DNA of 64,000 nucleotides, taken from the IMG/VR virus record IMGVR_UViG_3300045988_098562, positions 19,484 through 83,483 of that record. One strand, given 5' to 3'. The DNA is from a virus. A program made the translations under genes and the position numbers. Shown in pieces: positions 61,040-61,212 of this stretch. The notes beneath the pieces were generated by a model. The model had not been told where the DNA came from and made no database searches. It worked only from the letters and a program-made list of their open reading frames with translations. Position 1 is the first letter of the stretch; each line of letters opens with the position of its first letter.

Positions 61040-61212
61040 ACTGTTTTAAAACGCTTATCTATTGAATTTTGTTGGTAGGGAGTTGAATTTTGTTGATAGG
61101 GGGTTGAATTTTGTTGATAGGGAGTTGAATTTTGTTGATGGGGAGTTGAATTTTGTTGATAGGGAGTTGAATTTTGTTGATAGGGGGTTGAATTTTGTTG
61201 ATAGGGGGTGCC
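61040..61212. repeat. iteron-like tandem array: ~7 copies of 24-bp unit TTGAATTTTGTTGATAGGG(A/G)G plus 2 degenerate upstream copies
   Basis: Read directly; alternating AGGGAG/AGGGGG variants; followed by G/C-rich GGGGGTGCCCTCCCCCTCTCC. Confidence 0.85.

Follow-up and report, generated by a model that had tools for sequence, protein, structure and literature searches.

A hypervariable tandem-repeat locus built on a conserved 51-bp module in an epsilon crAss-like phage: a putative cis-acting element

The question

What is the role of a sevenfold tandem repeat that lies within the largest low-coding region of a gut phage genome? The repeat is found in a 64,000-nucleotide stretch of viral DNA (positions 19,484 to 83,483 of IMG/VR record IMGVR_UViG_3300045988_098562), here called the window, to which all coordinates refer unless a relative is named. 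Gene content and the closest GenBank relative identify the window as part of an uncultured epsilon crAss-like phage of the gut. An initial annotation had taken the repeat for an iteron array at a replication origin. The answer proposed here consists of two parts. As judged from sequence comparison, the array is a recent, strain-specific expansion of the end of a 51-bp module, forming a variable-number tandem repeat (VNTR), and the modules are probably a cis-acting element; to this part of the explanation, a probability of about 0.8 is given. The second part, a role of the modules in the regulation of leftward early transcription, is favoured but tentative (about 0.4) and is the weakest step of the explanation.

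The tandem array and the 51-bp module

Tandem Repeats Finder (TRF) reported a single array at the locus, at 61062-61206, with a period of 21, 6.9 copies, 95% matches, a score of 262 and the consensus TTGAATTTTGTTGATAGGGAG. It is by far the strongest tandem array of the window. A repeat search of the window found seven in-register copies spaced exactly 21 bp, which occupy 61062-61208 on the + strand: unit 1 is TTGAATTTTGTTGGTAGGGAG, and units 2-7 read ...GATAGGGRG or ...GATGGGGAG. The seven near-identical head-to-tail copies first described are thus present, with a period of 21 bp instead of the 24 bp announced (the unit originally written out is itself 21 nt long), and the GC-rich element said to follow them is there as well (GGGGGTGCCCTCCCCCTCTCC, 61204-61224, directly after the array). 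Because the units differ from one another at three positions, the array of this window is considered real. The core TTRAATTTTGTKG occurs eight times in the window, compared to 1.35 expected (0 of 100 shuffles reach eight), and every copy is located at the array locus. The + strand of the array contains no C, which results in a GC skew of +1.0 inside the array against -0.4 to -0.8 in the flanks; the local strand bias is thus reversed within the array. Neither strand of the array folds (minimum free energy of 0).

The "two degenerate copies" that had been noted upstream are not decayed 21-mers. They are two 51-bp modules on the + strand (60980-61030 and 61031-61082), each composed of Box C (CTAcAnAATg), Box A (TGTTTTAAA), a variable spacer of 10-12 nt and Box B (TnAATTTTGTnGG). 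In module 1, Box C (CTATATAATG, 60980-60989) and Box A (CTGTTTTAAA, 60990-60999) are followed, in the remaining 61000-61030, by the spacer (61000-61010), Box B (TTGAATTTTGTGGA, 61011-61024) and a tail. In module 2, Box C (CTACAGAACA, 61031-61040), the same Box A (CTGTTTTAAA, 61041-61050) and the spacer (61051-61061) precede the remainder at 61062-61082, made of Box B (TTGAATTTTGTTGG, 61062-61075) and the tail TAGGGAG; these last 21 nt are unit 1 of the array. On direct reading, the first element of the locus is a degenerate half-module resembling Box B (CTTAATCTGTTGGAAGGAAC, 60960-60979, + strand).

Two sets of relatives were compared: 75 related viral loci, obtained from a search with a neighbouring gene of 134 amino acids (aa), and at least 117 viral contigs matching the pattern Box A-gap-Box B, nearly all from the human gut and 80-155 kb long. 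Among 57 distinct modules of relatives, Box A (cTGTTTTAAA, with the core palindrome GTTTTAAAAC) is 91-100% conserved per position and Box B (yTnAATTTTGTkGG) 94-100%; Box C is moderately conserved and the spacer is variable. Neither the Box A nor the Box B motif occurs elsewhere in the 64 kb. The contigs listed (at least 117) each carry 1-9 modules with a period of 50-52 bp, always followed by a GTGCCCTCCCTCTCCCCCTCTCCAAC...CCGCATAGAACC polypyrimidine tract. The sole close GenBank relative, crAssE-Sib (OR575929, 151,256 bp, human gut), whose flanks are ~93.5% identical to the window, has three 51-bp units and the same polypyrimidine tract at the same position, without the 21-bp array. Conservation of the repeat, one of the checks attached to the origin proposal, consequently gives a divided outcome: the 7 x 21-bp array is absent from crAssE-Sib and from most relatives, whereas the underlying array of 51-bp modules was found in every relative examined.

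In 596 Gb of bacterial genomes, the Box A-gap-Box B pattern gave only 40 scattered single chance matches and one mis-binned phage fragment; hence, the module is specific to this phage group. The fragment in question (L222, NZ_DXLG01000138.1, 3.9 kb) has modules as well as the polypyrimidine flank and was binned in a Veillonella metagenome-assembled genome. Its presence there is almost certainly due to mis-binning and, as such, no indication of the host. In 185,579 reference genomes, the phage did not turn up as a replicon, and they revealed no host or plasmid state.

The modules would represent DNA-level binding sites for one or more sequence-specific proteins, because the spacer drifts between conserved boxes, the spacing corresponds to whole helical turns (21 bp is about two turns, 51 bp about five) and Box A is palindromic.

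Three other identities of the repeat were tried and rejected. Four reading frames are open through the array, but a protein-coding repeat does not agree with an array that is absent or differently sized in relatives. No transfer RNA (tRNA) was called, and the region from 59.8 to 64 kb gave no Rfam match at E <= 10 beyond noise. A CRISPR array was discarded, the units being head-to-tail without spacers.

Copy-number variation

Among ~100 contigs that span the locus, 52 distinct alleles were identified, with 1-16 copies of Box B and 1-9 copies of Box A. Most alleles have a single 21-mer, and the commonest one combines it with two modules; the allele of the window, with eight copies of Box B, is in the upper range, and the copy number of the 21-mer in relatives is 1-7 or more. 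Segments smaller than the module have been amplified independently in many lineages, with periods of 19, 20, 21, 22, 23, 29 and 31 bp and in several registers; gains of whole modules are also seen. A complete Box B core is contained in 16 of the 21 catalogued types of short expansion, whereas random segments of that size would contain it in ~22% of cases (binomial p = 2.7e-7; a conservative expectation gives 1.4e-4). This excess means either that additional Box B sites are advantageous or that slippage is concentrated at the junction with the polypyrimidine tract. In the proposed mechanism, replication slippage or unequal exchange would keep making alleles, of which those adding Box B sites would persist; the number of sites would be free to vary, the function tolerating or exploiting such changes.

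Variation extends to the polypyrimidine tract beyond the modules, a CCCTCT-type microsatellite that reaches ~80 nt in some relatives (L077, 4928-5160; L125, L128, L097 and L100).

Such variability could also be that of a functionless satellite: a slippage-prone tract sustained by its own repetitiveness and by its polypyrimidine neighbour, with neutral variation only. Copy number and period are indeed extremely variable, the tract varies in length too, most short expansions adjoin it, and assemblies break at the locus. A mere satellite is, nevertheless, distinctly improbable: boxes A and B are kept across lineages in which the spacer and the AT-rich stretch next to the modules diverge, every fully spanned allele retains at least one module, and Box B is over-represented even in internal expansions, such as in L164.

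The breaks in the assemblies are numerous. Of the 75 related contigs, 36 end within 6 kb on the array side of the anchor gene: 28 inside the repeat locus (p ~6e-19 under a uniform expectation) and six at a second tandem array, described below. The ends are spread through the repeats and not gathered at one coordinate, and some contigs, also "complete" ones, start and finish in the repeat locus (e.g., contig 105159). These contig ends are read as assembly breaks, not as physical ends, and VNTR artefacts may be behind terminal-repeat and completeness calls of these phages.

A possible regulatory array for leftward transcription

In the favoured explanation, the modules would be a promoter-proximal regulatory array (operator, activator or bent-DNA sites) for a leftward early transcription unit, which would start with the gene of a cysteine-rich (Cys-rich) protein and continue to the replication genes. 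As in the initial annotation, the locus is positioned at the start of a long leftward gene block; it is located past minus-strand terminators. Read from right to left on the minus strand, the gene at 61924-62130 is followed by a strong intrinsic terminator (hairpin and TTTTTG; z = -4.88, 0 of 200 shuffles folding as well) and a second hairpin adjoining the mapped genome terminus (together 61849-61916), two AGTTTCGTTTTARACCAAT repeats, a terminator-like hairpin at 61701-61682, the gene of a 55-aa protein with a weak terminator, the GC-rich block, the array and modules, the stretch of 24% GC and, finally, the Cys-rich gene. Since minus-strand terminators are located upstream of the modules (61916-61885, 61701-61682 and 61379-61367), a new transcription start would be needed there. 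In every lineage, the modules begin ~50-75 bp from the start codon of the Cys-rich gene. The second VNTR, too, is placed upstream of a promoter- or operator-like region on the minus strand, which was counted in favour of regulation. Furthermore, host-type promoters are in use, because TAnnTTTG sites (the -7 box) follow gene orientation across the window, with 22:4 in the plus block and 12:30 in the minus block. The preferred analogy is that of promoter-proximal VNTRs and operator arrays, in which variable repeats upstream of a gene alter the number or the phasing of sites; the unit described here is, however, longer and more composite than classical phase-variation repeats, and both promoter and regulator are only putative.

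Several observations weigh against regulation by the modules. No full match to the Bacteroidetes sigma-A promoter (TTTG at -33 and TAnnTTTG at -7, with a spacing of 17-21 nt) was found in the modules. Some relatives do have TAATTTTG in Box B, but on the + strand and directed away from the adjacent gene; Box B of the window (TTGAATTTTG) does not have the T of the -7 box, and the nearest full -33/-7 match, at 60859 on the minus strand, lies inside the Cys-rich gene. As for the binding protein, the neighbouring open reading frames (ORFs) show no known DNA-binding domain, and the structural model of the Cys-rich protein is of low confidence. The Box B bias could result from a mutational hotspot beside the polypyrimidine tract and not from selection, and the copy numbers were taken from metagenomes assembled from short reads, an approach that is unreliable for tandem repeats. 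Finally, the succession of GC-rich block, repeats and AT-rich stretch, together with a nearby genome end, fits an origin or a packaging element about as well.

A scan for sigma-70 consensus promoters gave 12 sites compared to 12.2 expected, i.e., no enrichment. For the early promoters of the virion RNA polymerase of phi14:2, a cultured crAss-like phage, no motif is known.

A role at the RNA level was also considered, in which the locus would produce a leftward non-coding or leader RNA and its G-free repeat CUCCCUAUCAACAAAAUUCAA would be an unstructured platform or sponge for an RNA-binding factor. The model for this is phi14:2, which has a 1.7-kb ORF-free early region with abundant intergenic RNAs (bioRxiv 10.1101/2020.03.07.982082). 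Both phages have a low-coding region of 1.6-1.7 kb in the early gene block near one genome end; that of phi14:2, however, contains only trivial repeats (15 bp x 2.5) and has no sequence similarity to the present one. No arrays comparable to those described here were found in the cultured crAss-like phages phi14:2 and crAss001, only trivial repeats. The repeat itself is wholly structure-free, as such a platform would be, and the consensus fold of the right flank, based on an alignment of 32 sequences, is far better on the minus strand (-30.8 vs. -13.1 kcal/mol). In this fold, paired cells make up 98.3%; wobble changes preserve 21 pairs and three pairs show compensatory changes, and 1 of 500 shuffles reaches the observed values. 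The z-scores from folding single sequences of the right flank are, on the contrary, unremarkable (+0.81, -0.02, -1.36 and -0.80), the pairing is that of low-complexity purine with pyrimidine tracts, and no Rfam family matches; a structured RNA in the right flank was rejected on account of the single-sequence scores. Conserved boxes around a variable spacer, with whole-turn periods, are more in keeping with recognition at the DNA level. An RNA-level element is very improbable.

A possible replication origin or genome-end element

The proposal of a replication origin regards the modules as iterons to which a phage initiator would bind, or else a host factor, since epsilon crAss-like phages encode no DNA polymerase (PMC7886860). 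Such binding would melt the 24%-GC stretch, and the DnaB-like helicase and the primase of the phage would then be loaded. The replication mode and the origin are unknown across all crAss-like phages (PMC10136315), and no better candidate for the origin is at hand. Nothing relevant on tandem repeats or origins in crAss-like phages was found in the literature, and the crAssE-Sib paper does not mention repeats.

The resemblance to the iteron origins and copy-control loci of other replicons (lambda ori, P1 oriR/incA, pSC101, R6K and RK2) is considerable: phased tandem repeats of ~20 bp, unique in the genome, between AT-rich and GC-rich flanks. Where iterons are at least three direct, helically phased repeats of ~17-22 bp, the window has seven of 21 bp, and relatives have 1-9 modules. 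The conserved unit here is, however, a 51-bp module of three boxes and not a simple iteron of 17-22 bp, and the locus has no adjacent initiator gene, no DnaA or integration host factor (IHF) sites and no skew signature. The number of sites, 1-16 among near-identical genomes, is unusual for a core origin; in P1 incA, a second set of iterons only titrates the initiator, so that extra sites are tolerated, and additional Box B copies could be tolerated, or act in copy control, in the same manner. The AT-rich spacer that separates the start codon of the Cys-rich gene from the modules (60901-60959, 24% GC, with an A9 run) would be the stretch to be melted. This stretch (24% GC in the 50 bp at 60900-60949) doubles as the leader of the next gene; it is not conserved from one lineage to another and contains no repeated 13-mers. 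Thus, of the classic iteron-origin layout that had been claimed, the phased direct repeats, their uniqueness, the conserved boxes and the GC-rich and 24%-GC flanks are there, while the origin itself is supported by none of the tests run.

The initial annotation had proposed to examine cumulative GC skew over a complete genome. In crAssE-Sib, the minimum is at ~17 kb and the maximum at ~110 kb; the array, at 150.5 kb, corresponds to neither. A skew minimum elsewhere and the lack of the repeats in close relatives were among the findings that the initial annotation had named as refuting an origin, and they largely apply to the 7 x 21-bp array. The two extremes coincide with the switches in gene orientation, the minus-strand block of this genome extending from 110.9 kb past the end of the record to 17.4 kb and the plus block occupying 17.4 to 110.8 kb. 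GC skew follows gene orientation completely and is, therefore, a poor locator of an origin. Inside the co-oriented minus block, the per-gene skew does not change sign at the array; its best split is near the region but weak (a step from 0.29 to 0.23, |t| = 2.45). GC skew at third codon positions (GC3) has no significant change-point at the array (permutation p = 0.11). The corresponding AT3 skew does change, from +0.04 to -0.07 (permutation p = 0.004), at 699-1307 of crAssE-Sib (~62.5-63.1 kb in the window), which is 0.7-1.3 kb beyond the terminus. Under an origin model, the direction of this change is opposite to that implied by the GC3 difference, and no matching GC3 change exists; the AT3 change-point is interpreted as marking either the junction of gene sets or the genome end.

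The surroundings do not point to an origin either. The array had been described as adjacent to the replication genes. The DnaB-like helicase gene (42524-43657) and the primase-like gene (45083-46096), both on the minus strand, are 15-18 kb away, separated from the array by ~40 small ORFs. The "1.6 kb ORF-free" region around the array in fact holds three small genes, encoding proteins of 26, 55 and 86 aa, whose length is kept in all relatives, and the true intergenic spacer measures 485 bp (60901-61384). An initiator at the array found no support: the neighbouring ORFs have no Rep, initiator-like or DNA-binding domain. With one mismatch allowed, no DnaA box resembling TTATNCACA is present in or beside the array, let alone a cluster. 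A partition centromere was not indicated, the flanking ORFs containing no ParA/ParB-like domain. Taken with the directness and phasing of the repeats, the conservation of the element and its low-coding setting, these results leave an origin possible but unlikely. A bolder version, drawn by analogy, is a long shot: the modules would serve replication as well as copy control in a phage that lacks a polymerase and relies on the replisome of its host, and the rapidly changing number of Box B sites, like the incA iterons of P1, would tune copy number, or incompatibility between co-infecting strains, in a plasmid-like carrier state.

A mapped genome end is located close to the array. The start of the crAssE-Sib record was set by its authors with PhageTerm (p = 1.5e-22), the type of end not being stated; the matching position in the window, the CCGCCGTTCACT/CTCAGAATATCC junction at 61841-61842, is 635 bp to the right of the array. 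Only two arrays with a TRF score above 100 exist in the 151-kb crAssE-Sib genome, and the mapped terminus is between them: the modules are at -0.64 to -0.80 kb and an array with a unit of ~30 bp at +2.07 to +2.18 kb. In the window, this second variable array (TCTCTCATCACATAAATATTTTTTCTCATA, without G on the + strand, ~2-13 copies in relatives) begins at 63907 and runs off the window end at 64000; in L002, it occupies 2066-2176. Beside the terminus, two direct repeats AGTTTCGTTTTARACCAAT (61726-61818, + strand, 74 bp apart) have GTTTTARAC in common with Box A. This motif occurs five times compared to 1.6 expected, with three occurrences on the same strand within 0.8 kb at this locus, a weak link.

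These facts suggest a further explanation, in which both arrays would be repeats associated with the genome end and serve concatemer processing, terminase recognition or the control of ejection. A podovirus-type precedent is T7, whose SRL and SRR short-repeat arrays reportedly flank the terminal repeat, as Dunn and Studier are said to have described in 1983. Both phages have two short, imperfect, non-coding repeat arrays around the genome end, ahead of early genes; the arrays of T7, however, adjoin a defined terminal repeat of 160 bp, whereas those described here are 0.64 and 2.07 kb from the mapped end and unrelated in sequence. The R sites of lambda cosB and pacL/pacR of SPP1 are sites of the terminase small subunit, located ~100-300 bp from the cut and fixed in number. 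They resemble the present locus as repeated, phased, bent-DNA binding sites near a cleavage point that are unique in the genome, but the locus is hypervariable and its 635 bp are far from the cut for a classical terminase-binding site. Moreover, the terminus comes from one sample, with its type (pac, cos or terminal repeat) not reported, the two arrays do not share sequence, and contig ends cluster in the arrays and not at the mapped terminus, as assembly breaks would. An end-associated function is thus rather improbable.

Flanking sequences and neighbouring genes

The GC-rich block (61207-61300, 54-64% GC, + strand) opens with the polypyrimidine tract GTGCCCTCCCCCTCTCCAAC and is found after the modules in every relative. 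A 17-bp sequence, CCCACGCCCTACCGCCT, is present in two exact copies at 61259-61275 and 61377-61393. Many relatives have GCGCTCTC... in place of the first copy, and this sequence forms a hairpin of 8 bp with GAGAGCGC; the two alternative alleles possibly arose from gene conversion.

The Cys-rich protein gene (~60630-60900, minus strand) is the first minus-strand gene downstream of the modules. It is intact in relatives, where it encodes 86-90 aa. In the window, it is split into two ORFs (60727-60900 and 60630-60749) by an extra base in the A/T run at 60731-60737 (T7 instead of T6 on the coding strand), which is either a sequencing or assembly error or the sign of a pseudogene. The protein is unusually variable, with 513 clusters at 90% identity; the best 120 of the 513 are 78-95% identical and come from metagenome contigs of up to ~156 kb, consistent with this phage group. 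The N-terminal half of the protein hardly varies; the C-terminal half is variable but retains five cysteines. The AlphaFold model has a predicted local distance difference test (pLDDT) score of 51, a low confidence, and none of the flanking ORFs, this one included, has a Pfam, PHROG or PDB match. The conserved gene of the 55-aa hydrophobic protein (61385-61552, minus strand) forms the right edge of the intergenic spacer and is followed by the weak terminator-like hairpin at 61379-61367; the 26-aa ORF is at 60442-60522.

A palindromic motif (TGATTATCA / TGATAATCA) is present in three copies at 63649-63804, in an AT-rich stretch upstream of the ORF at 62878-63417 (minus strand); the copies look like operators. 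Two tRNA-like 3' halves, consisting of the T-arm GGTTCGATTCYGG and a 7-nt acceptor strand without CCA, are located at 60316-60345 and 62345-62375 on the minus strand, ~25-30 nt upstream of the start codons of the ORFs at 59890-60294 and 62153-62323 and at the ends of ORF-poor stretches of ~500 nt. Neither ARAGORN nor Rfam calls them. A third such half occurs in relatives (e.g., L005), and a relative encodes a CCA-adding enzyme, a Ro60-like protein and a polynucleotide kinase. The halves may be RNA-processing or minihelix signals.

At the level of the genome, crAssE-Sib has been assigned to the epsilon group of crAss-like phages (PMC11054128), and no other epsilon genome turned up among the GenBank phage records. 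The + strand of the window encodes giant virion proteins, as expected for an epsilon crAss-like phage, and the minus strand a C5-methylase, an SNF2-type helicase and a PD-(D/E)XK nuclease in addition to the DnaB-like helicase and the primase-like gene. A full-length HEARO RNA (IscB-associated, omega-type) is present at 38111-38349 on the minus strand, with 112.9 bits, above the Rfam gathering score. Its neighbours are a 115-aa ORF and a flotillin-like gene, and no ORF of the size of IscB adjoins it.

Significance

The crAss-like phages are the most abundant group of gut viruses, and for none of them is an origin, a packaging signal or an early control element known. The locus and the surrounding 3 kb are an obvious place to look for such elements in the polymerase-less epsilon group. 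For practical purposes, the locus is a natural VNTR, usable as a strain marker, and since short-read assemblies break at it, contig ends as well as terminal-repeat and completeness calls need care. If true, the copy-control reading would provide the first origin and control element of any crAss-like phage and would explain the hypervariability of the locus.

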